Shown here: piece by piece, positions 9,241 to 62,760 of the stretch
How the letters are laid out: every line of letters starts with the position of its first letter
How positions within the stretch are numbered: position 1 is the first letter of the stretch
Assembly (NCBI RefSeq): GCF_004324835.1
Contig: NW_021163190.1
Span: forward strand, 255,242-319,241
Source: Dendronephthya gigantea
Taxonomy: Eukaryota
Direction: 5' to 3'
Length of the DNA stretch: 64,000 bases
Translations under genes and position numbers: made by a program
Notes under the pieces: generated by a model
Database searches by the model: none
The model's input: only the letters and a program-made list of their open reading frames with translations
Told to the model about the DNA's origin: nothing

Positions 9241-12200
9241 CTTATCAGACAATAAAATACAAAGCTTTTAATGGATATTAATGGAAATGGAGCATTTTAA
9301 TTGGTTCTTTAGCGGTCGGTAACCCCCAATATTGACCGCTAAGTTTTGGCGGGAAAAAAATGAAATTTAGTGTTTTGAGTGATTTTCTTCAAAAACTCTG
9401 TTTGGGAGAACGGTTTAGAAAGTTTAAAATGTCTTAAAGGGAAGAGGAATTAATTGGTTTTTATTATCCGGAAAAAGATGATGTTTTGGGCAACGTAAGG
9501 ACTTGAATAGCTAAAGAAATTAACGAGATTGGGCTGCTTCTAGGCAACTAGCTAGCGACCCGGAACTTGCAAACAGAAGGATTATTTGGGTTGCATCAAG
9601 GCGAAGATATGCACTTTACTTATTAGGAAACTTACCAAGCGATTTCGAACCACAATCAACCAGCATTTTCTCAATTTCCGAAGCATTTACCGGAAGGTAA
9701 TTATCTAGACGAGAATCTGTTAAATTCCAAGAACCATCCTAGAAGAAGTTCCGGAAAGATGTAAGTACACATCCACTATGTATATCAGTCTAGAGTTAGT
9801 TTAGTTTAGGTTTCCTCCTGTAGTAACACTGGACCAATAAGAGATGATCCTTACTGGACCTCTAGGAAGAACAGTTTAGAACTGATAGAGCTATCCAGTA
9901 TAAATAAAGTTAGTTTAGTTTAGGTTTCCTTCTGTAGTAACACTGGATCAATAAGAGATGATCCTTACTGGACTTCTAGGAAGAACAGTTTAGAACTGAT
10001 AGAGCTATCCAGTATAAATAAAGTTAGTTTAGTTTAGGTTTCCTCCTGTAGTAATACTGCATCAAATAAGAGATGATCCTTACTGGACCTCTAGGAAGAA
10101 CAGTTTAGAACTGATAGAGCTATCCAGTATAAATAAAGTTAGTTTAGTTTAGGTTTCCTCCTGTAGTAACACTGAATCAATAAGAGATGATTCTTACTGG
10201 ACCTCTAGGAAGAACAGTTTAGAACTGATAGAGCAATCCATTATAAATAAAGTTAGTTTAGTTTAGGTTTCCTCCTGTAGTAACACTGGATCAATAAGAG
10301 ATGATCCTTACTGGACCTCTAGGAAGAACAATTTAGTCTTATATTACCTCATCTTGTAACAGAAATACCCCGATTGGTGGTCCCATCTTTTGTGGTGTCG
10401 ACTGCATTTCTGGAAGGTTGATCGAACATCTCATCATCCGGCCTGCCCTTCTTCTGTGTAATCTCTCCTCTATTTGCAAAAGTAATAGTCATTTCAACTT
10501 ATATTTCGCTAAACAAGAACAGAAGTTAAACGCTAGCCTTCTAAATAGCTTACTTTTGGGCAATTTTACATCAGGGGCAGTTGTTCAAAGCTAGGTGGGC
10601 GCTAACCCTGGGTTAAATCTTAATCCAGTGTTTTATATAGTTGACGTGCTTCTGAGCCGCTGTTCGTTACAAAATATGACTTCTATCCGTCAAGAAAATA
10701 TTTATAAAAAAAGGTATTCAACTTTGTAAGCAGGCAATAAAAAATTTAATGTAAAGATTTGCTTTAACCCAGGGTCAGAGCAGTTTCGAATATTTTTGGG
10801 GTTTCGCAGAATTGTAAAAACAGCTTTGGAAACGAACTTTTAATCGGCTGTTGGTTGTAGCAATTTAGAATAGAATGGCATTACGATGTTGACAGGCTTA
10901 ATAAAGAGGATATTTTCTATGCCACGTATAATATTTGTTTAATTTCTTTTAAAATTGAGAACGTTTTGCAACCCTCAAAAACATCGAAAAACAATGTTTA
11001 CTATTTCATCTAAAAACAACATTAAAATGAAGAGATTTCTCGGGATACGACGAGAATTAAATGACACTTAAATCGAAGCTTCTTTTGCATTCATTTCAGT
11101 TATAATGGCGTTGACATTATAACATTGTTGATAGCCGCATTATATTTTGAAAAACCTCTCGTCGTTTAGTGTTTTGCAATCACCAAATATCGAGCGATAG
11201 AAAGGTTTGACCAAGGTTAACCGCGCTTTTTGTTAGATTATTTCTGGACAGTACTATAATTATAGCAACTTGAGAATACTGATGAGTGACTGTTACATGA
11301 AGTTTACATCAGTGACTAGCGCTAAATAACGCAGGCATAGGTCTGGACAGTGCTATAATTATAGCAACTTGAGAATACTGATGAGTGACTGTTACATGAA
11401 GTCTACATGAGTGACTGGCGCTAAATAACGCAGGCATAGGTCAGCGGGCTCGGCGGAGCACATGGAAACTCGAGCGAGATAACTTGCAATCAGTTGGCAT
11501 TATTTTTTGTGTTCATATTTTTGTACAAGAGTTTTTCTCTAGAAATAAAAAGAGTTCTTCGTACACAACAATGAGAATATTCATTGTGACGATTAGTACA
11601 TGAGTTTCGAATAATATTTTTTTCTAACAAGTGAAGAGGTATATACCTTTTGGTTTTGAAGTGCTATACCATCGCCTAGAGGAACCGCTTGCCACAGGCG
11701 GTGGAGGGGGTTCCCGTGACTCGATGGATCTGCGGAGCAAGGGTGAAGCGGCGGGGGATGGCGTTTCTTGTTCTTCTTGTGTTTGTTCTTTATCCGTCTG
11801 AACTTGCTGACTGCCAAGAGACAACGCTACAACGTTCTCCGAAACCCCATCTTCTTTTTTCCTCCGTTTAGGAGAATCTGCTGATTTCAATGATAAAATA
11901 CAACTAAAGCGCCTCACACGAGAGCTGGTAGCTGAGGTAAAGACCTCGCAAGGCTGGTAATTTGCTCAGCAAGTTAGAGGCTGTTTGCATGAGCCCGGTT
12001 ACCCGAGATTCAACGAAGCGTGAGATGATTTTGAGGTATTGTAACAAGTCTTTATGACACGAAACAAGCACATGCAATTGTTCTGGTGAGTATTCGACTG
12101 CCAGGATCATGTTATCTGCTCATTTCAATACCTCAAAATCATCTCACGCTTCGTCGAACTCGGGTAACCGGGCTCATGAAAACAGCCCCTTACTCTCGTA

Positions 12201-15200
12201 TGGGGATAGTTTTGGTGAGGAATTCGCCTCGAGAGGCAAGTTTCAAGAGTTTTTCCCTAGAAATAAAAAGCGTTCTTCGTATGCAGCGAAGAGAACATTC
12301 ATTGAGACGATTAGTAGATGAGTTTTGAATAAGAATTTCTTTTAACAAGCGGAGAAGTATATACCTTTTGTTTTCACAGCCCCGAGGCTGACGCTAAACG
12401 GTGACTTGGAGAGCAAGGGTGGAGCAGCCCGGGCAGGCATTTCTTGTTCTTTTTGTGGTTGTTGTTTATGAGTTTGAACTTGCTGAATACCAAACGAAAA
12501 TCCTCCAAAGGTATCCTTCACCGAGACCTCATCTTCTTTTTTCTTCTGTTCAGGAGAATCTGTTAATATCAATGATAAAATAGAACTAAAGCGCGCCTCA
12601 CACGAGAGCTGGTAGCTGAGGTAAAGACCTCGCGAGGCTGTTAGCTCAGCAAGTTACTCTCGTGTGCGGATAGTTTTTCGTCAGGAATTCGTCTACATAG
12701 TTCGTCTACATAGTTTGTCGTGTGTTTTTACTCAGACGAATGATCTGTCAGATGGATCATTTGTCCAGACGGATAATCCGTCTCTAGTATCATTTGGGCC
12801 AACATTTAATCGACTGTTACAGCACTGTCCAGTTGCGGTTCGGTTGCGGGCGACCGATAAAAACCGCAGACGACCGCGAAGGAAAAAACACGACCGCGGT
12901 TGCCGTTCGCTTCTGAACGGAATGCTATGAACTGCTGAGAACAACAACACAATAATCATATCAAAAACATCCTAAGAAATATCAGTCAGACCGAGTTAGG
13001 CTGAGGTTTAACGTCCGTCTCACGGCGGTTCGTCCTCGGTCTGACCACGGTTCAACGGCGATCAGACCGAGGTTTCACCAAGGTTCTGGACAGTACTATA
13101 ATTATAGCAACTCGAGAATACTGATGAGTGACTATTATATGAAGTTTACATAAGTGACTAACAATAACGCAGGCACAGGTCAGCGGGCTCGACGGAGCAC
13201 ATGGAAACTCGAGCGAGATAACTTCGGATCAGTTGTCAAATAATTTTTTGTGTTCATATTTTTGTACAAGAGTTTTTCTCTAGAAATAAAAAGAGTTCTT
13301 CGTACACAACAATGAGAATATTCATTGTGACGATTAGTAGATGAGTTTCGAATAATCTTTTTTTCTAACAAGTGAAGAGGTATATACCTTTTGGTTCTGA
13401 AGCGTCATAGCATCGCGTAAAGGAACTGCTTGGCATAGGAGGTAGAGGGGGATTCCGTGATCTGGTGGATCTGCGGAGCAAGGGTGAAGCGGCGGGGGGT
13501 GGCGTTTCTTGTTCTTCTTGTGGTTGTTCTTTATCCGTCTGAACTTGCTGACTACCAAGAGACAACGCTACAACGTTCTCCGAAAGCCCATCTTCTTCTT
13601 TCTTCTCTTCAGGAGAATCTGTTGATTTCAATGATAAAATAGAACTAAAGCGCGTCGCACACGAGAGCTGGTAGCTGAGGTAAAGACCTCGCGAGGCTGT
13701 TAGCTCAGCAAGTTACTCTCGTGTGCGGATAGTTTTCAGGCTGAGTTAACTGCCTCGCGAGGTCGTTAGTTCAGCTGATAGCTCTCTTGTGCGGCTTGCT
13801 TAAGGCTATGTGGTGCATGCGAGCGTCATTTTCGAGTGTTTTCAGTATTCTTACCAGGTAAGGAAGGCTTGAAGTAGCTAGGTCTTCGTAGATTCTTTGG
13901 AACCTCATCTCGTATTAAGTGAGGTTTTGCTTCTCCATCAAAACCCCCACTGGAATCAGATTCGATTTCTATAAAATACAACAAAACGATGATGTGCATT
14001 GAATGCCCTAAATTCATAACTGCATATTTCAGATTTCCATGCACGTCTTTCCATGAACATTGACGCTACATTAAGAAGCAGAATAGGCTACTTTGAGAAT
14101 ATCACTATCATAAGACCGAACAACTTGTATACATTAAATTGATACGATGTATAATATAGGAACAGATTTTTCACCTGAATTTATATTTAGCCATTTGGGA
14201 CAAAAGGCTACCATTGTTAGGAGCTGTTTATATTGGAGCCAGGCTGGCTCGGCCGTGAAAACTATTCAAGTCTCTTAAAAGTTTAGAAAAACATCGGAAA
14301 GGGCGGTCGTGTGTTTCTCGAAAGATCTGTCATTATCTGCGGTTTCTTGTTGTTGGGGTTGTTTTAGTTTATGTGCTTTTGAACCACTGTTCGTTTCAAC
14401 ACTTTACAAAATAAGACTTCTTTCGGTCCACAAAATATTTATAATAAAGATATTCAACTTTGTAAACAGGCAATAAAAAAATTTAGTGCAAAGATTTGCT
14501 TTAACCCCGCCAGGGTTGGCTAAGCCAGGTTTTGAACGACGTGGCTCAGAGGATCGAACGTTGTAATAAGCAAGAGTTTTTCTCTAGAAATAACAAGTAC
14601 GATCAAACTACAGGGTGTCCCAAAAAAAACGAAAACTATTGAAATCACCCATAACAATGTAATTGTTAGAGTTTGAATGCCTAAGCACTCTGTTGGGCCC
14701 ACAAGTGTATAAATCGGGGTTGCCATAAGCATTTTTATGCATGCATATGATGCAGTCAAATTTGCTTGTTCGCAAAAATGATATTTATTAACAATATTTA
14801 CAATTTACAAATATGGATAACATTATTTAAAATTTAAATGTATGTGCATCTCAAGGACCATGACCTTCGACATGTCCCCTTTCTCTAGCAACACAAAGCA
14901 TTTAGCATTTTATAAGCTGCATTAAATCCCCACGGGCTGAAATTCGTGAACACGGCATTCAATTTTTAACAATGAGTGATTTCAATACTTTTCGGGTTTT
15001 TTGGGACACCCTGTATAGGCTGAATATTAATGATATGTATATATCATTTGCTGCAAATATATCAAGAATTGCTTGTAACTTGCTTCAAAGGTCAAAAGTA
15101 AAAATTCGAACTCCGTCAATCGATGCGGAATATTGCTTATAGAATAATTGTGCCAAGTTTCATTCCGATCAAACAAGTAATGATAGAGCCTTAGGGTTTT

Positions 15201-18200
15201 TTTAAAGAGCGTAGCCCCCTAACAACAACAACAACAGAAGATTAGCAGCGGTTACGGACCAGTTCCTGGTCCAAAAAGCGTTCCTCGTACACAGCGAAGA
15301 GAACATTCATTGTGACGATTAGTAAACGAATTTCGAATAAGAATTTTTTTATCAAGTGGAGAGGTACATACCTTCTCTATTCAAAATCCCAAAGCTTCGC
15401 CTACGGTAGGCGATGCTAAACGGTGACTTGGAGAACAGGCGTGGAGCGGCGGGGGGTGGTGTTTCTTGTTCTTCTTGTGGCTGTTTTTTATCTGTCTGAA
15501 CTTGCTGAATACCAAACGAAAATCCTCCAAAGGTATCGTTCTTGGACACCCCATCTTCTTCTTTCTTCTCTTCAGTAGAATCTGTTTATTTCAATGATAA
15601 AATAGAACTAAAGCCCTAAAGAATTCATATTAGGCACAGGAAATTCATCTTAGACAGGAAAGTTGATTGTAAAAACCCGTCTTAATATGACTTGGAATGG
15701 ATATAAAATTTACACGTGTGATGGGTCGGGTAATGCTAAAAAGGGTATCGTGATTATTACGATAATAATTTTGTTTATTTTCTCAGTTAAGCGCGCCTCA
15801 CACGAGAGCTGGTAGCTGAGGTAAAGACCTCGCGAGGCTGTTAGCTCAGCAAGTTACTTTCGTGTGCGGATAGTTTTTCGTGAGGAATTCGTCTACATAG
15901 TTCGTCTAGATAGTTTGTCGTGTGTTTTTACTCAGACGAATGATCTGTCAGATGGATCATTTGTCCAGACGGATAATCCGTCTCTAGTGTCATTTGGGCC
16001 AATATTTAATCGACTGTTACAGCACTGTCCAGTTGCGGTTCGGTTGTGGTCGACCGACAGAAACCGCAGACGACCGCAAGGGAAAAAATACGACCGCGGT
16101 TGCCGTTCGCTTCTGAACGGAATGCTATGAACAGCTGAGAACAACAACACAATAATCATATCAAAAACATCCTAAGAAATATCAGTCAGACCGAGCTAGG
16201 CCGAGGTTTAACGTCCGTCTCACCGCGGTTCGACCTCGGTTCAACTGCGATCAGACCGAGGTTTCACCAAGGTTCTGGACAGTACTATAATTATAGCAAC
16301 TCGAGAATACTGATGAGTGACTGTTACATGAAGTTTACATAAGTGACAAACAATAACGCAGGCACAGGTCAGCGTGCTCGACGGAGCACATGGAAACTCA
16401 AGCGAGATAACTTTGGATCAGTTGACATTATTTTACGTGTTCATATTTTTGTACAACAGTTTTTCTCTTTAAATAAAAATCGTTCGTCGTACACAACAAT
16501 GAGAATATTCTTTGTGACGATTAGTACATGAGTTTCAAATATGAATTTTTTTGACAAGCGGAGGGGTACATACCTTTCGGTTTTGAAGCGTCATAGCATG
16601 AAATAATAGAGGAACTGGCGCTAAGAGGTGTAGATATAGAGGGTGGAGAGGGTGGAGGCGAATGCCGTGACTCAACGTGCAGTGGTGAAGCGGTGGGGGA
16701 TGCCATCTTGACACTTCTCTTCGACTTAAGAGAATGAAACGATTCCAATGCTACAAATGCAAACAAAAGATGCTGTAGAAATTGCTGATGCAAGTCGCGC
16801 TTGTGGACGCCCCCTGCACTTCTCGTTTCTACAAAATTGTTTCAGTAGATGAGTTTTTTCAATCGATTTGTAGATGAGTTTCGAATAATATTCTTTTCTA
16901 ACAAGTGAAGAGGTATATACCTTTTGGTTTTGAAGCGCTATAGCATCGCAGAAAGGAACTGCTTGCCATAGGCGGTGGAGGGGGATCCCGTGACCTGATG
17001 CCGGACTTGGGCGGCAAGGGTGGAGCAGCCGGGGATGGTGTTTCTTGTTCTTCTTGTGGTTTTTGTTTAGCCGTCTGAGCTTGCTCAATACCAAACAAAA
17101 ATCCTCCAAAGGTATCGTTGTTGGACACCCCATCTTCTTCTTTCTTCTCTTCAGAAGAATCAGTTCATTTCAATGATAAAATAGAACTAAAGCGCGCCTC
17201 ACAGGAGAGCTGGTAGCTGAGGTAAAGACCTCGCGAGGCTGTTAGCTCAGCAAGTTACTCTCGTGTGCGGATAGTTTTTCGTGAGGAATTCGCCTCGAGA
17301 GGCAAGTTTCTATCGTGTGCGGATAGTTTTCAGGCTGAGTTAACTGCCTCGCGAGGTCGTTAGCTCAGCTGATAGCTCTCTTGTGCGGCGGGCTTAAGGT
17401 TATATGCGGTGCACGCTAGCTATAGCGTCATTTTCGAGCGATTTCAATATTCTTACCAGGTAAGGCAGACCTGCGGTAGGCAGAACTTCGCGAACGCGGT
17501 ATTAGAGCCTCATCTCTTATTGAGTGAGATATTTCTCCACCACCAAAAGTCTGTCTCAAATCAGGTACGATTTCTATAAAATACAACAAAACGATGATGT
17601 GTATTAATAATGCTCTAAATTCAAAACTGAATATTTCAGGGGCCGGTTGTATCAAGCCCGTTTAGCTTAAACGGCGGATAAGTTTAAAATAGAAAGCAAG
17701 TCTATCGTTTTATTCAACAAGCAAACAAAATGTTTCTAACCTTAATACAAAGATACTGCTCACAACTACATATTCAGTGCATAATATTCAAGTTGACTCA
17801 TTCAAGAGAGATGTAAGAGTGTTATTTAATTTTGACTTATCCACCGCTCAAACTCGTTTCGAACATGCACAACCGGACCTTGGTATATTTGATGGCCCCT
17901 TCACACATATTTTAGGGCTACACCCCTCCCCCCCCCGGTTTAAGTCAAACTTTTCAAGCTTCTTACCAAATGTCGGAGCGATCCTAGAGCTCGGAACAGG
18001 GGGAGGAGGGGGTGGTGGTGACGCTACACCTTCTTCTTTCGCACCACGAGATGGAACACCTCGTCTCAAAGATTTTTTGGACTTTATCTTTCCGAGGAGG
18101 GCATCAAGTTCTAATTTTGCTTGTGGATCCTCTACCAGTGAAAAGAAAGATGGTGTAGAAATTCTTTGACAACAAAGCAAAAGTAGTTCATGGTTGACAT

Positions 18201-21200
18201 GTACTGTATTTAGACCATACAGTTCCAGAATAACATCGGTGGTAAACCGCATAATATGGTAAACATACCATCATCAAAGCACATATCATCGCCTTCACTT
18301 TCATCATCATCATCATGTAAATCTGGGAAGAACAATTTGGAACTTCGAGAATCCACCTGACCTTATTTATGCCTCACTATATCACCTGAGTCACTATTGA
18401 TAGTTTCCGAGAACTTTCTTGCAAGTCCTGGGGCCGGTTGTATCAAGCCCGTTTAGCTTAAACGGTGGATAAGTTCAAAATAGAAAGCAAGTCTATCGTT
18501 TTACTCAACAAGCAAACTAAATGTTTTTAACCTTAATACAAAGATACTGTTTACAACTACATATTCAGTGCATAATATTCAAGTTGACTCATTCAAGAGA
18601 GATGTAAGAGTGTTATTTAATTTTGACTTATCCGCCGTTTAAGCTAAACGGGCTTGATACAACTGGCCCCAGATTTCCATGTCCTGTTTTCCACCAGGCG
18701 AATTTATTCGCGTGACGCGAAGCGATATCTGAAATCGGGTTATTGGATTGCTTTGCGAAAAAAATCGCCGCGAAAAAGTAGAAACGCTTCTTAAGGCGGA
18801 TTTCCACTTACAGCGAAATCGTTCGCTAGCGAAATATTTGCATATTTCCTTTTGAATTGAGAACAGTCAAGTCGAACTAATTTATTTATGCTGTTAAAAT
18901 TCAAAAGAAAACATGCAAATATTTCGCTGGCGAACGATTTCGCTGTAAGTGGAAATCGGCCTTTACTTTTTATATGTTCGCGCGAAAGGGCTAACACCCC
19001 CCCGGTTTAAGTCAAACTTTTCAAGCTTCTTACCTAATGTCTGTGCGTTCGTAGAGCTCGGAACAGGGGGAGGAGGGGGTGGTGGCGATGCTACATCTTC
19101 TTCTTTTGCACCACGAGATGGAACACCTCGTCTCAAAGATTTTTTGGACCTTAATTTTGCTTGTGGATCATCTACCAGTGAAAAGAAAGATGGTGAAGAA
19201 ATTCTTTGATAACAAAGCAAAAGTAGTTTATGGTTGACATGTATCGTATTTAGACCATACAGTTCCAGAATAACACGGGGTAAACTGCATAATATGGTTA
19301 ACATACCATCATCACTGAATAATCCAAAGCCATATCATGGCTTTACTTCATTCATTATCATCATGTAAATCTGAGAAGAACAATTTGGAATTTTGAGAAT
19401 CCACCTGACCTTACTTATGCATCACTATATCACAGAGTTGCAAAAAGAGTTCAACCTTCCTCCGGTAGGATTTCAAGTTTTGAAAACCTTCCTCAAAACG
19501 ACGTTACGTCAGTGAGTCAAGTGGCAACCAGCATAAACAAATATTTGTTTTTTTAATACATGCATGTGATCAATTAGAGTGCTCAACTTTGAACCTTCCT
19601 CACAAACCTCATTCAAAGCAAACCTTCCTCCGGGTGGTACCCGCGTACCCGCTGCTTTTTTGCAACTCTGCTATATCACCTGAGTCACTATTGATAGTCT
19701 CCGAGAATTTTCTTGCAAGTCCAGGGGCGTAGCCAAACGGGGAATGGGGTGTTCGGACTTTCTCCCCCCTGTTGTAATTTTCGTCTAGTAACATGTAGAG
19801 CTTAGTATACTTAATGGTTGCCCCCTGTTAATCTTAGGCTGCTCCGCCTCTGTTTAAGTGAAACTTTTCAAGCTTCGTACCTGGTGAGAATGTGTTCATA
19901 ACTGGAAATTCAGTACTCAAATATCGTCCGCTTGGTGCCCCTAAAAAGAAAAATGATGTGGAAATACAATAATCAAGAGTGAATATGGAGACAGAAACAC
20001 AATAATTAAGAGTGGATATGGAGAGTTAAATTTTTCAGTTTCATTGCAAGCCTCACCTAGATCTGGAGGCAAATCATCAAGTTCTTCAACATCATGTCCT
20101 GTGCATAACAAAATGAAAATAACAAATGAATAAACCGAAAGCAGATAATAATTTAGATATACTCATAAACTAGACACCGTGGCAATTGGTAAGAGTTGAT
20201 TTCATAAGTATCATTTAAATGATTTTAAACTTTTACGTGCGTTTAGGTACGTATAAAAAAAAACGAAAGTGGAAAACAGCCCTTAACCTACAAGCTAATT
20301 TACAAAGATTTCGTACTGTCTTGCTTCAAAGCATGAAATTTAAATTCTTGCAAGTTCAGGGGCGTAGCCAAACGGGAAATGGGGTGTTCTTAAGTGAAAC
20401 TTTTCAAGCTTCTTACCTGTTGAGAATGTGTTTATAATTGGAAATCTAGGACTTAAAGAACTTTCCCTTGGTGGCACTAAAAAGAAAAATGATGTGGAAA
20501 TACAATAATCAAGAGTGAATATGGAGACTGAAATTCTTTAGTTTCATTGCAGCCTCACCTATTACATAAATATCTTCAAAATCAGTCCTGGTATAACGAA
20601 GTGAAAATAACAAATAAATAAACCGAAAGCAGATAATAGTTTAGATATACTCATATACTGCATAGGACACCGTGGAAATTGGTAAGAGTTGATTTCATAA
20701 GTATCATTTAAATGATTTTAAACTTTTAACGTGCGTTTAGGTACGTAAAAAAACACGAAAGTGGAAAACAGCCCTTAAGCTACAAGCTAATTTACAAAGA
20801 TTTCGTACTGTTTTGCTTCAAAGCATGAAATTTAAATTCTCGCAAGTCCAGGGGCGTAGCCAAACGGGAAATGGGGTGTTTTTAAGTGAAACTTTTCAAG
20901 CTTCTTACCTGTTGAGAATGTGTTCATAATTGGAAATCCAGGACTTAAAGAACGTTCCTTTGGTGGCACTAAAAAGAAAAATGATGTGGAAATACAATAA
21001 TCAAGAGTGAATATGGAGACAGAAATACAAGAATCAAGAGTGGATATGGAGAGTTAAATTTTTCAGTTTCATTGCAAGCCTCACTTGCATCATGTCTTGT
21101 GCATAACAAAGTGAAAATAACAAATAAATAAACCGAAAGCAGATAATAATTTAGATATACTCATAAACTAGACACCGTGGATTTTAGTAAGAGTTGATTT

Positions 21201-24200
21201 CATAAGTATCATTTAAATGATTTTAAACTTTTAATTGCGTTTACATACGCACAAAAAACACGAAAGTGGAAGACAACCCTTAAGCCACAAGCTAATTTAC
21301 AAAGATTTCGTATTGTTTTCCTTTAAAACTTGAAATTTAAACATTCACTGAAGCTGGGAGAGTCTATGGAAAGTCTGCGAAATACAGATAATGTACAAAC
21401 GTCGACAGAATATCGGTCGACTTTTACGCTACTTTTATGACTATTTTTGGACTAAATTTAATGACGGCAGAAGTCAGTGAATATGGAGACAGAAGTTCAA
21501 TAATCAAGAGTGAATATGGAGAAGAATGTTGTGAATACCCAGAGAACATTCCAAAGAACATTTTTCTACGTCCATATCAAAACAAAGCTCGCTTGACCCT
21601 CCACCGAAACCATAAATTTCTTCATCACCTGTTCATGCCAGAGAAAAATAAGTTAATAATTTAGATTTACTGCGTATAGACAATACGTTCAGTTCTGGAG
21701 TAAAATGATAATATATATGTTATTTACCAGATTGGAGGTCTGTATAGGGAAATATTTCCCAAGGTCTCAAAAACAGCCCGAGCCCGAAGGCCGAGGGACG
21801 TTTTTAAGACCGAGGGAAATATTTCCATATACAGACCGACTAAACTGGTAAATAATAGATTTATTTTTTTTCTTGCGGTTTGAATTCGTATTTTAGCGTT
21901 GGCTCTGCGCTTTTAAATCTCGCCCGGTCCGTACGGCCTCATACGGACCGCTCGCGTAGCCAATCAGATTGCAGAAAACGCTAAAATATGAATTCGGACC
22001 GCAAGGAAAAAAAATATATCCAGTGCGAAACGTTTAGATTGTCATAAATTTTCTTTACCAGTAGAATCATATAATCGATGCGAAGAATCGAAATCCGTAA
22101 ATTCGGGAGAAAAATTACGCACCATCAAACCAGGATATGCAAGCTGTAAAAAATATTATTCATTTGAAATATGGCAAAGAGATAAAATATTTTTTTAGAG
22201 TTTCAGCACATTTAGGGACAGAAAATCATCCTAAGCTATATACTATAAATTCTACTGAAATACACGAATGTAGGTTAGGATTATGTTTTAGATTAGGTTC
22301 ATGGTTGATGAGGGTTAGCCTTAATCCTTAATCCTTAATCCTTAATCCTAACCCTAATCCACGGACATGGAATTATTAACAATTTGGGTTTGAGGATGGC
22401 AGCCAAGTTATCGTTCCAGTCTAAGTAGAGTTCAGTGTTACTTTATTAACAAACCTCATGAGCTGCGCCCAAAAGTTCATCAACATCACCAGAAGACAAT
22501 GATTCCTCCTCTGATTCATCCTCTGAGTCCTCTGATTCCCCCTCTGATTCCTCATCGTCCTCCTCGAACCCAATATATCCCAAGATATCCACATCTTCTC
22601 CATCAAGAATTTCGTCGACGTCCGGCGCAGTTGTCGAATCAAAGGTCTCGCCTTCTTCACGCTTTTCAATTGCGACAAAACTTGTGAACTTGGACGTGAC
22701 TGAGTATTTCTTGCTTATTTCAATAATATAATCTTTGCGAGACACCTTGACCGCCTGGAAAATAAGATTACAACGTCGTTCAAGAACAATTACAAAATTA
22801 AACCTCCATGAAAAAAAATTACGACAATTTTCCGTGAATTTTGATGCAAAGCCTTGTTTACACCTGCGATTTTCCCTGATGTGCGATTTTCTCCTTTCGA
22901 TAGATGCGAATGAACGAATAAGTTGCGGATGTTCATCTTAGGAGACTTATACATTAGAACATTGACAACTTTTGCTCGTTCCCATCTGTCAAAAGCAGAA
23001 AATCGCACTTAAAATTGCAGCAAAAATTGAAAGTCTAAATGGGCATAAACGTGGTGTTATAAGCATTTAGTTATAATCAAGACTAGTGTTATTAATAATC
23101 AAACAATATTGAAATACCAGCTAAAACAATAAGTGTAGTGGTTCAGCCTACACAGACCTGGTGATGGAGGTGGTCTGGGGCAAGTAATCCTTCTTCCCAA
23201 TCATTAATCAGTGCCCTGGCTGTCAGCTGATGCAAGGTTGAACCAGAGGTGATACTCAGTTCTGACGTTGAGACCATTGTTGAAATCTCCTTGCCATTTA
23301 TCATAGCTTTTAATGTCGCCTGGAAAAAACAAATAAGAGATGATCCTTACTGTACCTCTAGGAAGAACAGCTTAGAACTGATAGAGCTAACCACTATAAA
23401 TAAAGTTAGTTTAGTTTAGGTTTCCTCCTGTAGTAGCACTGGGTCAATAAGAGATGATCCTTACTGGATCTCTAGAAAGAACAGTTTAGAACTGATAGAG
23501 CTATCCAGTATAAATAAAGTTAGTTTAGTTTAGGTTTCCTCCTGTAGTAACACTGGAACAATAAGAGATGATCCTTACTAGACCTCTAGGAAGAACAGTT
23601 TAGAACTGATAGAGCTATCCAGTATAAATAAAGTTAGTTTAGTTTAGGTTTCCTCCTGTAGTAACACTGGAACAATAAGAGATGATCCTTACTGGACCTC
23701 TAGGAAGAACAGTTTAGAACTGATAGAGCTATCCAGTATAAATAAAGTTGGTTTAGTTTAGGTTTCCATACAGTTCAGATCTCCATACCTGGGTACAGTA
23801 AGGAACAAAGCCATACACCACTTGTCTCGAGCCATTGAAAAGCGATAATATTTGGCTTGGGGCCTGGATTGGAGTTGGTGCGTCATTATCAAACTGTTGC
23901 CAGGCAACAGATACTGACGTGAGGACAGGTTGTTGCGACCTCGAGATAAAAGACTCCACTTTTCTTTTCCATTTTGACTTGACTTTCTCGTCAAAGTATT
24001 CCGACGCGCCTGCGCCAACTTTTGCCAAAGTCCGCAAGAAATAACGATTTGCAGAAGAGCTATAAAATAGAAAGACATTGAATTCTAGTTTCTGCTCATC
24101 TCAACTCATTGCCGAGGTTTATGTGTTTACAATGGCAAGGAATTGGTTTGAATCCTGTTTCAAAGATTTGTTATCGAAATGTATTACGCTAGACTAACGC

Positions 24201-27200
24201 CTGTATTCTAAAAGCTAGACTAACGCCTGTATTCTAAAAGCTAGACTAACGCCTGTATTCTAAAAGCTTGACTAACGCCTGTATTCTAAAAGCTAGACTA
24301 ACGCCTGTATTCTAAAAGCTAGACCGACGCCTGTATTCTAAAAGCTAGACTAACGCCTGTATTCTAAAAGCTAGACTAACCCCTGTATTCTAAAAGCTAG
24401 ACTAACGCCTGTATTCTAAAAGCTAGACTAACGCCTGTATTCTAAAAGCTAGACTAACGCCTGTATTCTAAAAGCTAGACTAACGCCTGTATTCTAAAAG
24501 CTAGACTAACGCCTGTATTCTAAAAGCTAGACTAACGCCTGTATTCTAAAAGCTAGACTAACGCCTGTATTCTAAAAGCTAGACTAACGCCTGTATTCTA
24601 AAAGCTAGACTAACGCCTGTATTCTAAAAGCTAGACTAACGCCTGTATTCTAAAAGCTAGACTAACGCCTGTATTCTAAAAGCTAGACTAACGCCTGTAT
24701 TCTAAAAGCTAGACTAACGCCTGTATTCTAAAAGCTAGACTAACGCCTGTATTCTAAAAGCTAGACTAACGCCTGTATTCTAAAAGCTAGACTAACGCCT
24801 GTATTCTAAAGCTAGACTAACGCCTGTATTCTAAAGCTAGACTAACGCCTTATTCTAAAAGCTAGACTAACGCCTGTATTCTAAAAGCTAGACTAACGCC
24901 TGTATTCTAAAAGCTAGACCGACGCCTGTATTCTAAAAGCTAGACTAACGCCTGTATTCTAAAAGCTAGACTAACCCCTGTATTTTAAAAGCTAGACTAA
25001 CGCCTGTATTCTAAAAGCTAGACTAACGCCTGTATTCTATAAGCTCGCTCGCACTCAAACTCATTGAGTGGGAGGTCTTAAAATTCTCATAACGTTTCCA
25101 TAACGTTATTTTCAGTAGAATAGGGGCTTGATTTTCAGTGATTTACCTTCTGCCTCCAACTATTTAGAAAGAACTTTCTTATTGTCCAGCATTAACAAAA
25201 TATTTATGTCACACTCAATGAGATGAGTGTGAGTGTGCTTTTTGGATATGGGTGTATATCTCACGCTGCTTGTTCTAAGATTATTGACAAGTGTTCAAAG
25301 CCCAAAACAAAGAGATGTGCGTCCAGGGGCGTTACTAGAACGATGATTGGGGGGGGGGGTGAATATATTCATATATTCAGTTCTGCCCGACGGATTTCTA
25401 TTGTCAGCTATTGCAATTACAAAAAGAAATCCGTAGGGCAGAACTGGATATATGAATATTCACCCCCCCCCAATTATCGTTTTAGTTACGCCACTGTATG
25501 CGTCTTTTGTATCAAGTTATATCATCTTGATATGCGTTATGCCACCTTGAAAATATTCATCCATAAACACTGTAACTTACCCTACACCAAACGTGAATAT
25601 CCTGGTCTGAGCAAAGCCACTGGTTGCCAGTCTCAAAACCATCTCGGTTTCGGTCACGTGCCCATCACTGAGAACACACACGTTCCTCACGTGGACATTG
25701 GATCTCACCGGTAGTAGACTTAAAGCTCTTAAAATCTTCCAGAGATCAGTGGCTCCCATATCACTGGTGCGGTTCTAAATAGGAATGATAATGATTACAT
25801 GAAGTTTCCAACACAGCTAAAGTACGCGTTACTTTATAGTATTTTACTCTGTCTAATGTCAGATGATTTTACTCGTCAGTGGAAGAGTACTGTCAGTTAA
25901 TAAGTTAACAAAACTATCTGTCAGTGTCTCTTGTTAACCCATTAGCTTGCAATGCACCCAGATGTGGCCTTCTTTAGTATTTTACTCTGTCTAATGTCAG
26001 ATGATTTTACTCATCAGTGGAAGAGTAGTGTCAGTTAACAAGTTAACAAAACTATCTGTCAGTGTCTCTTGTTAACCCATTAGCTTGCAATGCATCCAGA
26101 TGTGACCTACTTTAGTATTTTACCTGTCTAATGCCAGATGATTTTACTCATCAGTGGAAGAGTACTGTCAGTTAATAAGTTAACAAAACTATCTGTCAGT
26201 GTCTCTTGTTAACCCATTAGCTTGCAATGCACCCAGATGTGACCTACTTTAGTATTTTACCTGTCTAATGCCAGATGATTTTACTCATCAGTGGAAGAGT
26301 ACTGTCAATTAATAAGTTAACAAAACTATCTGTCAGTGTCTCTTGTTAACCCATTAGCTTGCAATGCTCCCAGATGTGGCCTACTTTAGTATTTTACTCT
26401 GTCTAATGCCAGATGATTTTACTCATCAGTGGAAGAATACTGTCAGTTAATAAGTTAACAAAACTATCTGTCAATGTCTCTTGTTAACCCATTAGCTTGC
26501 AATGCACCCAGATGTGACCTACTTTAGCATTTTACTCTGTCTAAAGCCTGTCTAAAAAGTTGTTAAAACGTCCTTTGAACTTACTTTAACAAAAGCAGCA
26601 GCTTCTTTCATACTTTTCTCCGTCTTCTCAACACTTGACGGAAATAACTCCAACCATTGGTTTCCAAAAGCAACGATATTAAACCTAGCGTTTGCTGGTA
26701 GTTTGTTCAGGGCAAGAAGTAGAATTTTCTTTGCATTGTCAATAGAAGATCCCTGTATTGATAAAAACTCGATAAAATAGGTTTGAAAAATAAGAAAATT
26801 TAGTGTGAAGCTTGAATCTTCCATTAAACTGAACGATATGAAAGCCATGAATCGTTCCTACCTTCATTGAACAAGACACATCCAATAGGAAGACATATTC
26901 GACATTTTCAATCGGGTCTGCCTCGAATTCAGGGTAAAAAGACAACATACAAGCCTGGATAAAAACAAAAATGGCTGAAACGAAATGGCTGAACACGAAA
27001 AACAAAAACGTTTTTCGTGTCCTCATATAGGGGAAGCTTTTGGGTGGAAAAGGTGATTTTCATGAACGCGAGAAAAAACTCACAAATGCTTCAAAATCTT
27101 TAGTGATATCAGACAGTACAGTTTACAACTTTCAGAGTTTTCTGACCGTAAAAGTGCTGGACAAATGAAGCAAGAAAGAATCGCTTAATTTTAACATCAA

Positions 27201-30200
27201 AATTATGGTAATCGATCGAAGTTTGTTTCCAGAGTTTTCTCACCGTAAACGTGCTGGACAAATGAAGCAAGAATCGCTTAATTTGAACATCTAAATTATG
27301 GTAATTGTTCGAAGTTTGTTTCCTTAAAGAATACGACCAGCATGCAGATTTTCTTTATTAGAAAGTCAGAAATGATATTCAACCTGCGAGTCTGCGTTTT
27401 CGGGATGTCTCTCGGCCCACATTCGTGGAACGTGGATTTCCGCGAGACCAATCAACAATTGAAAACCATTGTCCAGTTTTTGACCTTCCTTCATCTCCAG
27501 AACCGCTTTTGTTGCTGTTTTCTGTAAGAAAGACTAGACATTTGAGTGTGTGCATGGTTGGTAGATAAGGTAGGGTGTAAAGGTGGGGGCACAGAGATGG
27601 GGGTGTAGAGTTGGGGGTACAGAATGGGGATGTAGAGGTCGGAGTGTGGAGGTGGGGGTGTAGAGATGCGGTGTAGAGGTGGCGGCTCAGAGATAGGGGT
27701 GTAGAGGTGGGGTGTAGAGGTGGGAGTGTAGAGATGCGATGCGGAGGTGGGGGATACAGATATGGAGGTGTAGAGGTACGGTGTAGAGATGCGATGCAGA
27801 GGTGGGGGTACAAAGATGAGGGTGTAGAGGTGGGTGTGTAGAGGTGGGTGTGTAGAAGTGGGGGTGTAGGGGTGGGGGTGCAGGCCACAGACCTTTAATC
27901 TAACAACGTGTGTAGGACAGTCCAGTGTTCTTATATCGAACGGCATCTCAACAGCAATGTGAACAGAAAGATCACAAGAATCATCATCACGAGCTTGAAA
28001 ACTCTGAAGAACATTCTATAGTACGGAAAACACCACAGTTAATTTAGAGGAAACATCAACTAAACTAACTTTATTTATACTGGATAGCTCTAACAGTTCT
28101 AAACTGTTCTTCCTAGAGATCCAGTAAGGATCATCTCTTATTGATCCAGTGTTACTACAGGAGGAAACCTAAACTAAACTAACTTTATTTATACTGGATA
28201 GCTCTAACAGTTCTAAACTGTTCTTCCTAGAGGTCCAGTAAGGATCATCTCTTATTGATCCAGTGTTACTACAGGAGGAAACCTAAACTAAACTAACTTT
28301 ATTTATACTGGATAACTCTATCAGTTCTAAACTGTTCTTCCTATGAACTTCACTATCGATCATTACAAAAGTAAACTATACGTAAAATCGTACTTGTGTG
28401 CTTTCTTTCAGCGCCTGATCACGTGACCATGGTGCGAGGGAACCGGGGAGACTGAACACTATATTCTCATCTTCAACAGCAAGCTCAGCAACGTACGTTA
28501 TTTTGATCAAGACGGTCGCTCCGGGAGGGATATTACCAACACTAACCGTAAACACATCCTGCGATGAAAACAGACCAAAATACATAAAATATTCTCATCT
28601 ACCGATGTTTCAGAATATCTCGCCAATTTTTTAAAAAAAACTACATGCGGACTACCAAACTTAACCAATGATAATCAACCGATTATTGGGGAAATTAAAA
28701 GTGTCAGAAAACCTACTGAATCGATATCAAAATCACTAGGTCTTGCTTGGTCGGGAGACTATGATTCACTTAAACTGTTTGTTGCTGAATCACTAAGGTT
28801 ACAGGGTACCTGGACTCAACCTGGCGGGGATAGAAAAGTGTTTAATTTTTACTAAAGCAATAAGATGATGACGTGAACTTACTGGCGTCTCCTCGTCCAT
28901 CAAATAAGCCCCATGCCCCTCGCTGATGGCTTTCTTGTACTCCTTGTGGGCTTGTTCTTTCTCCTTTACTTCACCAACGATATGTTTACCATTGATAAAT
29001 GCCTCAAAACCACACACTAGAGAAAGATAGTTTAGTTTAGGTTTCCTCCTGTAGTAACATTAGATCAATAAGAGATGATCCTTACTGGATCTCTAGGAAG
29101 AACAGTTTAGAACTGATAGAGCTATCCAGTATAAATAAAGTTAGCTTAGTTTAGGTTTCCTCCTGTAGTAACACTGGATCAATAAGAGATGATCCTTACT
29201 GGACCTCTAGGAAGAACAGTTTAGAACTGATAGAACTATCCAGTATAAATAAAGTTAGTTTAGTTTAGGTTTCCTTCTGTAGTAACACTGGATCAATAAG
29301 AGATGATCCTTACTTGATCTCAATAAAAAAATCTTGAAAAAATAAGAAGATTTAAATCTATACCAGCAGCCATGTCATCCAATGGAAAAACATATTTGGC
29401 TTCAATTGGTTTGTCACTTGAATTCTTATAAACTTGCATGACAACAACTTTCGCACAGAGGTCCAAAAGTTTCGCTCTAATATGAACGGACTTTAAAGGC
29501 ACCAAGGTGTCTCCATCAGATCGCAATCCTGGTTTCACTTTGGTCAGTGGATCTTCAAGAGCCTCGATATCAGAGGTTGTAATATTTGGAGCAAATTCTT
29601 CTTCATCCGATGATGACATTGCTTCCTCGTCAAGAGAAATTGCTGTTGTGGGTTCAACGAGAACATCTTCACTAAAAATTGTTGGGAAAAGAGAGATGCA
29701 AAATGTCTTTCTCTGAAGGCCAATATTTCTTGCAACTTGCAATGCAATTCTACTTTTGAGAGATCTAAATTTGGCCACCAGGAAACTTTTCTGTTTATTA
29801 CACTCCACGTTCGTTTCTTACACTTACATTTTGAATACTCTGTACTAAATCACATGTCTTAAAAGTAGGATTGCATTGCATTAAGTTGCAAGAAAAATTG
29901 CACCGTGAAACACAACCTCGTTAACGCACCGTCTTGAGCACAAAAGACCCTGGGAACGAGGTAAGCGTGTAACACGGCTTTGACCTCGCTTGAACCTCGT
30001 TCCCCGAGCCCACGATTCCTCTGGCGAGAAAACAAAGGCTCTGGGATAATCTGAACCGGTTTGTAACCGTTTTCTGTATTTCAAAATTGGAACGGCGTGA
30101 ACGACTAATCAGAATAACTTCTGTTCAGGAATTTCCTTAACAAATCATTCAATATATATTCTTTCTTAGTACGATACAATAAAAATTTTTTACCGTTAAT

Positions 30201-33200
30201 CTATACATTTTTCTGTAATCTCAGGTCAATAGCGATGGTTTACAAGCAAATTTGTGGCGCTTTCTTGCTATATGGGAAAGCGAAAATCTTTCATTAATCA
30301 TAACCCTGATTTAAACCATTATTGAAATATTTGAAAAATGATTGTTTATATTCTTGTTTGCTTCTACAAAGAATCAAATTTCTAAAAACTAAATGTTTTG
30401 AAATTTAGGAACCACTTATTACGAGTTTTGTGCCATAGTTCTTTGCGAAAAACATGCATAAAATTACATGATCTACAATTACAATGCATAAAATTACATG
30501 ATCTACAATGATACATATCTACAATCAAATATTTTGAATATCAACTCCAAATAGTTCATATTATGATTATGGCGATATTTCACATAAACGAGCTAATCAA
30601 CATCCTACGTCAATTTTCACACAACAACAGCAGTGGACATCCATCTTCCTTGAGACATTTCTGGAAGTTCTTCCCAAGAATACCTTTCAAAGTTGAAACC
30701 TTCAACTGACTTCAGCATTCCTTGCCCACCCCACCCTCCCAGGACTACAATGTTGTTTTCAATAACACCTGCAGTACATGTACTCCTCTTACATCTCATT
30801 GATGGCAGCATGTGACTTTGTTCTGTCTTGACATTGTATATGATAACTGTATTTAATGTGTTGCCATGTTTGTCATCACCACCAATAACAACAATGTTGT
30901 CTCCCCATCTCACAGTTGCCATGAGACTCACCTCATACGGCAGTGGTGACAACTGTTTCAGCTCATTCTTCTTTATATCGTACAGTACGACACTGCTGAG
31001 GCTGTCTTTGTAACCGCCAGTTGTACTTCCACCAACTATCAACAAATTATCATCAAATATTTCCATGCTGTGATATAGTCTTGGTTCTGGCATTCTTGAT
31101 AAGGTCTTCACAGTATAGGGAGGAACAAGCTGGACTGCTCTGATCAAGTCAGAGAAACCATTTCCATTACCACCTCCAGAGACTATCAACTGATCATTAT
31201 ACAGCACACTGCTGTGGTCTCGCAACTTCTCAGGTAGTTTAACAGCACAGTCACTCCAGTGTGTTGAGAGATCAGGGTTTGGGTCAATATTCATTCTAAT
31301 CATATCATCAACACTGCCAGACCCACCACAGTCACCCCCAGCTATAGTCATATGATTGTTATAAATAAATGAAGTCGCTCCAAATCGTTTCTTTGGCATT
31401 GATTGTAATGGTGACCATGTTCTTTGACGCCAGTTAAACATCTCTACAGAGTTAGTCAATTAACCTCCAGCAACAATAATATTTTCCTTATCACCACTTG
31501 GTCTATTTATTACTTTTCTTGTGTTTTCCTCTATCTTGCCCTCCATCGTGAAAAGAACGTCCTTCATTTCATCAAAAGCTCTGACCAAAGCTGTTTTCAA
31601 TCCTTTGACTTCGTTGTTAACCGCTTCGAGTTTTCCTTCCATATCTGATTTCATATCTGCTTTTAAATCCGCAGTATTTTTGTCTATTTTTCTCTCTAAA
31701 TTTGTTATTTTAGTTTCAATTGTTATATTATTCTGCGCCATTCTTTCCTCCATATCTGCCAAAGTTTTCGTCATTTCTCCGCACGAGTGACACTTCAACT
31801 TTCGGAATTCACAGACTTCATTTTCATGGTGAATAAGATCACACTTGTTGACAATTAAACCACAGCCTTGGTTTCTACAAACGGCTGGTGTATATCCACA
31901 TGTATCTTCATGGCGGTCAAGATGCTGTAATTCTACAACTTCTTGACAACCTCTGTCGATGTAAACGCAACGAATTTTTGATTCATTCAAATAATCTTTT
32001 ATCATTCTTTGTGGTTCGGCCAAAGTCTCTACGGTCAGTTCATCAGCACACGTTGGGCATGTTTCAGAATTTTCCAGATGTTTCGTAATGCAACAACGGC
32101 AAAAAGAATGCTGGTTTCTCGAACACATAACCGGCTCTTTCAAGACATTGAAGCAAATCTGACAGAGGAAATTTTGATTGATTTTGTCCACAAACCTTTC
32201 TTCATCGTAGCCTTGTATGTATGAAGCCATATTTCACGTCGTTCTTGTGTCGTAATAATAAAGCAAGTTCTGTGTTGTTTGTAGCTCTGTAGTATAAACC
32301 TCGCTGTATAGACTGAATATAGATACAGTGTTCGTTCTTGGAGAAGTCTGTGTATTTGCTTGAAATCTTTTGATCGGTTTAGAAAATGGAGACAAATATT
32401 GCTTCCCCTTCGGTAAGGTGTTTAAAGCGTCTTTATGAAAAAAAATATATTTTTGTCAGGTCTTGTGACGAAAGGTCATCACCTCTTGTTCAAATACTGA
32501 CTTGCAATTGGTTGTGTTTTAGTGTATATATTGGCAGGAATTTCTTATATCATTATATGGAAATGAGTTCGAAGAAAACGATACTTTAAACCAAGAAATA
32601 TCAATCATAATAATGAAATATTTAGACTAGAAATATCAATCATAATAATGAAATATTTAGACTAAGTCTAAGTACATTGTAATCGATGTTGATAAAGTCT
32701 GCATCAGAATTTGTCTCAAATCTTTTACAAAATCATGTGTTAAAACATACAAACTGCCTTTATTTTAAAATATTTCACACAACGCTACACAGACTGACAT
32801 ATATTTTGTTTAAAATATCGCAACGGGTGGTCGCCAGGCAATATTATTATTGGTTTCAACTGGTTTTATCAGTGAGGGTTTTTAATTGCAGTGTTTTAAC
32901 GTTTTAACAGTCGACTAATTCCTAAGTATTAAGACGTGTCTTACTGACGTTTGTCGTAGCTTATTTGCTAGAAAAAAATGTCGCCATTATGAAATTTTGC
33001 AACAACTTTGTTGCAAAATATCAGGATTTGTAATTGTTCAGCGAAATAATATATGAGAATGATATTCCTCGGTCTGTTGTATAAAAAGGTATTGAATCAC
33101 AATTGGTCAATCACAATTCCGTATTCTGTAGTTAACTACGATAATTATCTGTCGCATTGCATTGGATCAATCCTTTTATATAATTTAAACTCACATTCGC

Positions 33201-61158: not shown

Positions 61159-61574
61159 CCGCCTCTGGAAATGGAATTTACTGTGGATGTAACATTAAAT
61201 ATTCTAAACATGCTACAAACGTGTGAAACTTCTAGCAATAAATTTTATTATTTTAATAATTTATTGTACCTGAGGATGGCCGCGCTATTGACATAATTTT
61301 TCTGTCTTCCAAATACTACAGTATTTTGATAATAATAAATGTATTTTATTATTTCTGGTTTCTTCTGTGGCAATATCATTGAATGAAGAGTATTTAGAAT
61401 ATTGTGAATGTTTTATCAGTTGAGATTATGTACAAACATAAATATGTCTAATGTTTACTAAGTCATTTTCTGCAGTCCATTGCTCAAGTCAGACATAACC
61501 AATGCCTACATCAATACAATTTCCTGATAAATATGTACTCTCTCATATTTCCAACATTATAACAATTTTCTCAG

Positions 61575-61925
61575 TTAATAGTTAACAAAACTATCTGTCA
61601 GTGTCTCTTGTTAACCCATTAGCTTGCAATGCACCCAGATGTGACATACTTTAGTATTTTACTCGGTCTAATGTCAGATGATTTTACTCATCAGTGGAAG
61701 AGTATTGTCAGTTAATAAGTTAACAAAACTATCTGTCAGTGTCTCTTGTTAACCCATTAGCTTGCAATGCACCCAGATGTGGCCTACTTTAGTATTCTAC
61801 TCTGTCTAATGTCAGATGATTTTACTCTTCAGTGAAAGAGTACTGTCAGTTAATGAGTTAACAAAACTATCTGTCAGTGTCTCTTGTTAACCCATTAGCT
61901 TGCAATGCATCTGAATGTAATCTAT
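61575..61925. repeat. SatB array (about 2.4 units)
   Basis: SatB homology. Confidence 0.9.
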
Positions 61926-62149
61926 TAAGACATTAAGTTATGTTTCTTCATTTTTTCACTGTCTATTATTGACCAATCTCATGATGAAGCACCCCACAGT
62001 TCCTGTCAGCTCTCATTCGTCTGATCATCGCCTGGTGCCTTCTTCTCATTGTGTGTTCCTAAAATGTCCTTTTCAACCTCTTCTAGACTGATATTTTTAT
62101 CATTCAAGGCCTTCTACAAAACAAACAATAGGAAATCTATCAAAATTAT

Positions 62150-62760
62150 ATCTTTTGTTAACTCATTAGCTTGCAATGCACCCAGATATGACCTATTTTA
62201 GTATTTTACTCTGTCTAATGCCAGATGATTTTACTCATCAGTGGAAGAGTACTGTCAGTTAATAAGTTAACAAAACTATCTGTCAGTGTCTCTTGTTAAC
62301 CCATTAGCTTGCAATGCACCCAGATGTGACCTACTTTAGTATTTTACTCTGTCTAATGTGAGATGATTTTACTCATCAGTGAAAGAGTACTGTCAGTTAA
62401 TAAGTTAACAAAACATCTGTCAGTGTCTTTTGTTAACCCATTAGCTTGCAATGCACCCAGATGTGACCTACTTTAGTATTTTACTCTGTCTAATGCCAGA
62501 TGATTTTACTCATCAGTGGAAGAGTACTGTCAGTTAATAAGTTAACAAAACATCTGTCAGTGTCTTTTGTTAACCCATTAGCTTGCAATGCACCCAGATG
62601 TGACCTACTTTAGTATTTTACTCTGTCTAATGCCAGATGATTTTACTCATCAGTGGAAGAGTACTGTCAGTTAATAAGTTAACAAAACATCTGTCAGTGT
62701 CTTTTGTTAACCCATTAGCTTGCAATGCACCCAGATGTGACCTACTTTAGTGTTTTATAA
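62150..62760. repeat. SatB array (about 4 units)
   Basis: SatB homology. Confidence 0.9.

Follow-up and report, generated by a model that had tools for sequence, protein, structure and literature searches.

What lies between the folded enzyme domains of vPARP (PARP4) and its C-terminal MVP-interaction domain in Dendronephthya gigantea, and what is the array of repeated exon-like modules found at that place? The question is raised by contig NW_021163190.1, positions 255,242 to 319,241, a stretch of 64,000 nt that was analysed whole (the window; coordinates below are on its plus scale). The window is invertebrate-like eukaryotic DNA of ~37% GC, packed with tandem-repeat elements, and the modules lie on its minus strand. 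The reading that we favor, at a probability of about 0.65, is that the interval encodes a disordered vPARP tether made of tandemly duplicated symmetric exons.

We identified the gene around the array by searching with the larger minus-strand open reading frames (ORFs) upstream of it. The best database matches to this query were PARP4-type proteins with PF00644 (PARP), PF08487 (VIT), and PF00092 (VWA), and tblastn of these proteins back onto the window placed the upstream exons. They run along one strand in the order BRCT, PARP catalytic, VIT, VWA, the order that marks PARP4:

~43956-43678, minus strand: BRCT exon, by tblastn
40216-37552, minus strand: PARP catalytic exons, by tblastn
29658-28394, minus strand: VIT exons, by tblastn
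27982-25580, minus strand: VWA exons, by tblastn
24076-23780 and 23322-23155, minus strand: further conserved PARP4 exons, by tblastn
22754 to 22490 (phase-1 donor) or to ~22450, minus strand: conserved acidic-run exon of PARP4, with tblastn reaching 22566
10469-10348, minus strand: T0, an adaptor exon of 122 nt, phase 1-0, encoding EERLHRRR..GVFLLQDE, from the joined translation
9738-9636, minus strand: T1, tail exon encoding DGSWNLT...SKSLG, start of the MVP-interaction domain, by homology
9240-8936, minus strand: last PARP4 exon, encoding the remainder of the MVP-interaction domain, with the stop codon at 8938-8936, by homology

The joined tail (T0, T1, and the last exon) aligns to residues 1576-1704 of human PARP4, the MVP-interaction domain, with an E value of 5.5e-12, and it also matches a fish PARP4 (P0015). 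Because the tail matches this domain, the assignment to PARP4 is right. The gene flanking the array is thus, by homology, a PARP4/vPARP orthologue, and its product is predicted to associate with vaults. A reading made earlier from the letters of the window (the sequence-only reading) had put the array inside a vPARP gene, and this is where it lies, with the BRCT, PARP, VIT, VWA, and acidic exons upstream and the MVP-interaction tail downstream on the same strand.

Reading through the donors of the acidic exon leads to a TAA at 22448-22446, which overlaps an AATAAA at 22447-22442 (minus strand). Because of this overlap, it is conceivable that a short PARP4 isoform ends after the acidic exon and has neither linker nor MVP-binding tail.

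We located the first family of repeat exons, A, by motif searches and translation. Six related exon-like copies span 11647-17160 on the minus strand, and their lengths (177-240 nt) are all multiples of 3:

11647-11877, minus strand: c1, 231 nt, phase 1-1, non-FG ENVVALSLG type with a long Pro-rich tail
12365-12559, minus strand: c2, 195 nt, phase 1-1, FG type (DTFGGFSFG) with a short tail
13388-13618, minus strand: c3, 231 nt, phase 1-1, non-FG type
15372-15581, minus strand: c4, 210 nt, phase 1-1, FG type
16574-16750, minus strand: c5, 177 nt, candidate phase 1-1, uncertain whether exon or pseudo-exon
16921-17160, minus strand: c6, 240 nt (228 nt from the acceptor at 17148), FG type with a long tail, mosaic or ancestral-like

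Copies c1 to c3 share the acceptor cag/ATTCTCC and the donor AAAAG/gtatatac (the slash marks the exon boundary), c4 carries the variants ATTCTAC at the acceptor and GAAG/gtatgtac at the donor, and ~100-130 nt of intron on either side of the copies is conserved as well. In every copy only offset 2, the phase 1-1 frame, is open. The motif DTFGGF(S/L)FG is encoded by c2, c4, and c6 and ENVVALSLG by c1 and c3, and the A exons are mosaics that combine an FG or non-FG 5' half with a long or short 3' half; DTFGGFSFGIQQVQTDK is an example of a module peptide. These results bear out much of the sequence-only reading, which had described at least six symmetric phase 1-1 exon copies with common splice sites and flanking intron, some of them without the FG motif (here two of the six, c1 and c3). 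It had also described one copy, at 16560-16700, as shifted into another frame, and this has to be withdrawn. The 3' half of c5 is homologous to the other A copies and in the same frame (..SCYDASKPK/gt), and a systematic scan found an in-phase acceptor, tttgtag/CA at 16750, that yields a 177-nt phase 1-1 exon; c5 is therefore not frame-shifted.

The A copies are accompanied by further families, B, C, and D. The repeat region had been set at 11230-17400, which holds the A array; its full extent is about twice as long, reaching 20968. We took the C and D candidates from a scan for open AG...GT intervals with good splice sites between 22450 and 17580, in which 8 of the 12 candidate rows with good splice sites were phase 1-1:

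13855-13968, minus strand: B, 114 nt, phase 1-1, ttttatag/AAATCG ... CCTG/gtaagaat, inside the A array
17457-17573, minus strand: B', 117 nt, phase 1-1, 78% identical to the B unit, with a 3-nt in-frame indel
17967-18131, minus strand: D1 candidate, 165 nt, phase 1-1, encoding ..SKKSLRRGVPSRGAKEE..PPPPPPPVPSS..
19034-19171, minus strand: D2 candidate, 138 nt, phase 1-1, with a 27-nt in-frame indel relative to D1
19881-19940, minus strand: C1 candidate, 60 nt, phase 1-1, APSGRYLSTEFPVMNTFSP
20417-20476, minus strand: C2 candidate, 60 nt, phase 1-1
20909-20968, minus strand: C3 candidate, 60 nt, phase 1-1, ttttctttttag/ ... CAG/gtaagaagc

The C and D families have strong sites, with a ttttctttttag/ acceptor and an AG/gtaagaagc donor, and in all four families exon length is divisible by 3 and offset 2 is open. 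Two other candidates were rejected: an acidic mini-exon at 18322-18269, ruled out by a 1-nt indel in the paralogous D2 unit, and an exon at 21839-21728 (phase 1-2), which is incompatible with its neighbouring exons. The conceptual linker has 603 aa without c5 and ~660 aa with it. Its composition without c5 is 14% Pro, 13% Ser, 9% Glu, 8% Lys, and 7% Arg, and it holds 8 FG dipeptides in ~600 aa, confined to four exons.

Self-BLAST and MAFFT alignments revealed nested duplications of 78-92.5% identity that reach 100-800 nt into the introns. The copies have diverged by 8-25% and are mosaic. The B'-c6 unit is 78% identical to the B-c3 unit, which we read as probably the oldest layer of duplication. 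The interval from c3 through the intron to c2 is 92.5% identical to the c5-to-c4 interval; therefore, a two-exon super-unit was copied. The c1 unit (11342-11976) is 90.5% identical to the c3 unit (13085-13715). Copies are spaced by 0.35-2.0 kb and the super-unit is ~3.6 kb, values that replace the duplicated units of 1.6-3.2 kb given before. We found no copies of the A, B, C, or D units, or of the hairpin described below, elsewhere in the 64-kb window. Together with the self-BLAST results and the co-conserved introns, this supports the proposal that the copies arose by local tandem amplification of exon-intron modules, and it rules out, for the window, A units that are a dispersed transposable element.

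Three long, near-perfect palindromes, resembling foldback elements or miniature inverted-repeat transposable elements (MITEs), were duplicated along with their modules and have RNA fold z-scores of -8.0, -9.9, and -16.2:

11972-12194, no strand assigned: palindrome just 5' of the c1 acceptor, fold z-score ~-16, with a second palindromic insert nested inside
13645-13804, no strand assigned: palindrome just 5' of the c3 acceptor, fold z-score ~-8.0
17187-17398, no strand assigned: palindrome just 5' of the c6 acceptor, fold z-score ~-9.9

As a matter of speculation, these palindromes may have favored rearrangement. True repeats that sit beside the modules (17639-17854, 14365-14540) have dispersed copies in the window, unlike the modules themselves. 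One of them belongs to a dispersed repeat of ~220-240 bp with inverted, MITE-like ends, found between array modules at 17639-17854 and 18430-18672 and again at 3987-4164, 36932-37176, 40870-41118, and 41725-41979. Judged by an Rfam scan of the whole window, the CTGATGAG occurring in the repeated introns is no hammerhead ribozyme.

Joining the array to the tail requires compatible phases. T1 starts in phase 0 and c1 exits in phase 1, so c1 cannot splice directly to T1. The conflict is resolved by T0, which is phase 1-0: it begins tag/AG GAG... and ends ..CAA GAT GAG/gtaata, followed by the DGSW of T1. The last eight residues of T0 align by BLASTP with a contiguous ORF in a syntenic relative (GVFLLQDE versus SLFQLQNE), and the 3' end of T0 is supported because the relative's alignment begins at GVFLLQDE. 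The rest of T0 resembles the relative's KERKVQRF..RKRCTV by eye only. On the upstream side, the acidic exon offers two routes into the array, one through a phase-1 donor (TCTG/gtgatg at 22490) and one through a phase-0 donor at 22455 and then a candidate phase 0-1 exon at 22143-22059, which also ends in phase 1. Joined in this way, the acidic exon, all modules, and the tail read as one open frame, whose only stop is the terminal one. The array thus fits in frame where it had been placed, between the VWA/acidic exons and the tail on the same strand. Because the upstream donor is phase 1, T0 accepts phase 1, and the modules are phase 1-1, the MVP-binding tail stays in frame whichever modules, and however many, are included.

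Searches for relatives of the A modules returned nothing. The concatenated A peptides had no match at E ≤ 0.1 in a word-indexed search of 5.8 billion proteins, and a profile hidden Markov model of five A peptides found no homologue among 1.84 billion representative proteins; its two matches were spurious low-complexity repeats of the 'QESPSPAAPSL' type. Metagenome contigs scanned with a back-translated pattern of the A alignment yielded nothing, and Pfam gave no match at E ≤ 1, Nucleoporin_FG included. Searching PDB chains with the whole linker gave a chance match only (E 0.36) and no PARP4 or nucleoporin chain; full-length human PARP4 is among the chains searched and was not retrieved. The peptides had been called FG-nucleoporin-like, and the resemblance holds for the motif. 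Kinship with nucleoporins does not follow from it, with 8 FG in ~600 aa and no Pfam, PDB, or protein-library match.

The tail, used as a query, found three contigs in ENA assemblies (L001 to L003) at 60-63% identity. L001 is syntenic, as its downstream ORFs match the window genes at 100-6600. In this syntenic relative (L001 and L002; contigs in ERZ1738540) the tail has no introns and follows without a break on an upstream linker of at least 280 aa, within a 419-aa ORF in L002. That linker is Pro-rich, with (MPPSTVYD)n repeats, is unrelated to the modules described above, and cannot be aligned with the linker here:

L002 5-1264 and L001 4-780, plus strand: repeat unit MPPSTVYD / MPSSRVYD of 8 residues, 24-nt period, at least 9 tandem copies

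In the relative, linker repeats therefore arise within an exon and not by exon duplication. A further relative, which carries P0002 (L004), reaches only the acidic exon and then meets a retroelement, so it is uninformative on the linker of its species. Comparison with PARP4 orthologs in related species had been suggested as a check; the syntenic relative does have a linker, encoded by a single exon of unrelated sequence.

In the five-copy A alignment, to which all substitution and stop counts refer, at least 116 substitutions separate the copies and the coding frame contains no in-frame stop. About 4.5% of possible substitutions would create such a stop, which gives a neutral probability of ~0.005 of finding none; frame 1 of the copies holds 4-5 stops per copy. 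The net indels in the A exons (9, 9, 45, and 30 nt) are all multiples of 3, and of the flanking-intron gaps (1, 2, 4, 5, 10, 11, and 19 nt) none is. Selection thus appears, on these counts, to maintain an open and spliceable frame rather than an amino-acid sequence. A pattern in which the frame is kept and the sequence is free fits what a disordered linker would show.

Several observations weigh against this reading. Frame 0, too, is nearly open in the A copies (0-2 stops), which somewhat weakens the open-frame argument. No purifying selection at the amino-acid level is detectable among the A copies, and non-coding sequence would look alike. Ka/Ks (nonsynonymous relative to synonymous substitution rates, here between paralogous copies only) is 0.48-1.02, except for c1/c3, where it is 2.7 (3 synonymous versus 24 nonsynonymous changes); the substitutions per codon position are 47/33/36, without a third-position excess. 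In most of the pairs that exclude c4 (c1-c2, c1-c3, c2-c3, and c2-c6), exon identity is no higher than flanking-intron identity, c2/c3 having 74.6% in the exon versus 85.4% in the intron; c1-c6 and c3-c6 run in the reverse direction. The canonical acceptor of c6 is gone (cTG for cAG), with an alternative in-phase AG 12 nt downstream (CTGAAG/AG, exon start 17148), and c5 has lost its original 5' half, which is replaced by other sequence. The C exons are just 60 nt long, so an open frame in them means little. The upstream donor (22490, or 22455 with 22143-22059) was chosen partly to fit the frame. With no homologue of the A modules, conservation cannot confirm them as coding.

Most of these points are also what an unlikely but serious alternative would lead one to expect, namely that the modules are non-coding intronic duplications or pseudo-exons, all or most of them skipped, with a short linker and open frames that are residual or compositional. 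Ka/Ks near 1, the flat distribution over codon positions, exons conserved no better than introns in most pairs, the nearly open frame 0, the damaged c6 and c5, and the lack of homologues in the libraries searched all speak for it; moreover, omitting every module would also stay in frame, because all are phase 1-1. It has no ready account of at least 116 substitutions without an in-frame stop (P ~0.005), or of net exon indels that are always multiples of 3 beside intron gaps that never are. Nor does it explain why canonical AG/GT sites and phase 1-1 are common to four independent families. With the modules skipped, the linker would nearly vanish, against at least 280 aa in the syntenic relative and ~360 aa in vertebrates.

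Distinctly improbable is the proposal that the modules are exonised pieces of a locally spread transposable or foldback element, whose exon-like features owe nothing to selection on PARP4. The MITE-like hairpins directly upstream of several A acceptors, duplicated with them, and the repeat-rich character of the window would suit it. The A, B, C, and D units and the hairpin are nevertheless confined to the array interval within the 64-kb window, genuine dispersed elements nearby have copies elsewhere, the Pfam scan found no transposase or reverse-transcriptase signal, and the frame-preserving indels are left unexplained. This proposal is partly compatible with a duplicated-exon tether, since an element-derived exon could later be amplified. 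That the repeat exons form a separate gene (for example, FG-nucleoporin-like) between or inside PARP4 with first and last exons of its own is scarcely credible: FGGFSFG motifs with charged spacers in three copies, and the AATAAA that overlaps the read-through stop of the acidic exon (22447-22442), are set against a T0, T1, and last exon that need the upstream phase-1 donor that every module supplies exactly, no initiator or terminal exon evident within the array, no Pfam (Nucleoporin_FG included), PDB, or protein-library match, and an FG density (8 in ~600 aa) far below that of FG nucleoporins.

Under the duplicated-exon reading, the interval from ~22.4 to 10.3 kb (minus strand) would be the linker between the VIT-VWA/acidic part and the C-terminal MVP-interaction domain. 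It would be built of ~12-13 short phase 1-1 exons in four families (A x6, B x2, C x3, D x2), which would have originated by repeated local duplication of exons with their flanking-intron modules, probably through unequal recombination or template switching between repeated intron sequences. We infer that modules are included in the mRNA, and that the product would be a flexible Pro/Ser/charged tether of ~600-660 aa connecting the vault-wall anchor to the folded enzyme domains. Gain, loss, decay, or skipping of modules could be tolerated, as the MVP-binding tail would stay in frame. A long shot is that the modules serve as alternative cassette exons, their choice influenced by the large intronic hairpins, to give vPARP isoforms that differ in tether length and in the number of cohesive FG motifs in the vault lumen. 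If true, this would tune the reach of the enzyme or the FG-binding cargo (for example, transport receptors) held by the vault.

A tether at this position has precedent. Vertebrate PARP4 has a disordered, length-variable, and positively selected region of ~360 aa in one exon ("exon 30") immediately ahead of the MVP-binding domain (Daugherty et al. 2014, PMC4038475), and long disordered regions bridge the folded PARP4 domains inside the vault (bioRxiv 10.1101/2024.06.27.601040). The linker here resembles exon 30 in family, in its position N-terminal of the MVP-interaction domain, and in disordered composition, and further in lacking sequence conservation between lineages and in variable length. 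For the vertebrate region dN/dS is near or above 1 (PMC4038475); the Ka/Ks values given above for the linker here compare paralogous copies. In vertebrates and in L001/L002, however, the region is one large exon, and here it is ~12-13 short phase 1-1 exons formed by duplication.

Tandem duplication of symmetric exons is known from titin PEVK, nebulin, collagens, and modular extracellular proteins with phase 1-1 exons. The array shares with these cases adjacent homologous exons of the same phase, co-duplicated intron flanks, super-units, and copy-number change in frame. It differs in that the unit encodes low-complexity disorder instead of a folded domain, in that it lies in an intracellular vault enzyme, and in the divergence and mosaic make-up that its copies already show. 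To FG-repeat nucleoporins the likeness is in FG/FxFG-like motifs (TFGGFSFG) within charged, Pro/Ser/Gln-rich disordered sequence; here, however, there is no dense FG array, no profile match, and no nuclear-pore anchoring domain, as the flanking exons encode PARP4 domains only.

The window holds other features. At least six PARP4 introns consist almost entirely of a 114-bp tandem-repeat element, lying in one orientation or the other:

9794-10336, 23332-23767, 28047-28343, 29023-29321, 38932-39372, and 40246-40596, either orientation: 114-bp element in introns
46574-46974, 55241-55788, and 60715-61053: further occurrences of the 114-bp element

In the intron 23779..23323, ~21 + 12 nt lie outside the element, and in the T0-T1 intron (10347..9739), ~66 nt. 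The repeat does not include the splice sites, and its flanks have no termini in common. Among relatives, L001 and L002 lack the tail introns, and L004 encodes VIT and VWA in one 1581-nt ORF. The element could reflect element-driven ("introner"-like) intron gain or invasion of short introns. Further introns, and intergenic sequence as well, are filled by other large tandem arrays (26 nt x33, 138 nt x5, G-rich arrays of 14/55/96 nt, 77 nt x17, and more 138-nt arrays); a 138-nt array occupies most of the PARP4 intron 26584..25769. An intronless gene on the same strand is present in two tandem copies within the 8-kb intron that separates the PARP catalytic exons of PARP4 from its VIT exons; one copy is an intact 538-aa ORF and the other is split into two adjoining ORFs. 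Downstream of PARP4 is a cluster of small genes for signal-peptide proteins, several of them paralogous, with synteny to L001. A tRNA-like sequence, the sole Rfam match in the window, may be a tRNA gene or the tRNA-derived head of a short interspersed nuclear element. Near the end of the window, an ORF whose N-terminal part looks misato/tubulin-like suggests a neighbouring gene on the opposite strand.

24188-25045, 25837-26548, 27573-27880, 48800-50100, 59965-60276, and 61571-62757: large tandem arrays
34007-35623 and 30617-32230, minus strand: intronless RING/TRAF-zinc-finger and Kelch-repeat gene, two tandem copies
100-540 (minus strand), 1456-1902 (plus), 2248-2628 (minus), 4460-5044 (minus), and 6294-6602 (plus): small signal-peptide genes
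56834-56905, minus strand: tRNA-like sequence, 36 bits
63193-63951, plus strand: ORF with the N-terminal part REVITFQVGNYSNFVGGHYWN

That symmetric exons duplicate in tandem and that the PARP4 linker turns over rapidly was known before; a modular, multi-exon PARP4 linker appears to be a new example and not a new principle, and what is known of vaults and of exon duplication is unchanged by it. If the modules are expressed, they would represent a second genomic route to a fast-changing PARP4 tether, with length changing by gain and loss of whole exons; in vertebrates the counterpart region, where positive selection is concentrated, lies in one large exon. Set beside its syntenic relative, the locus illustrates on a small scale the turnover of disordered regions between folded domains that are conserved.

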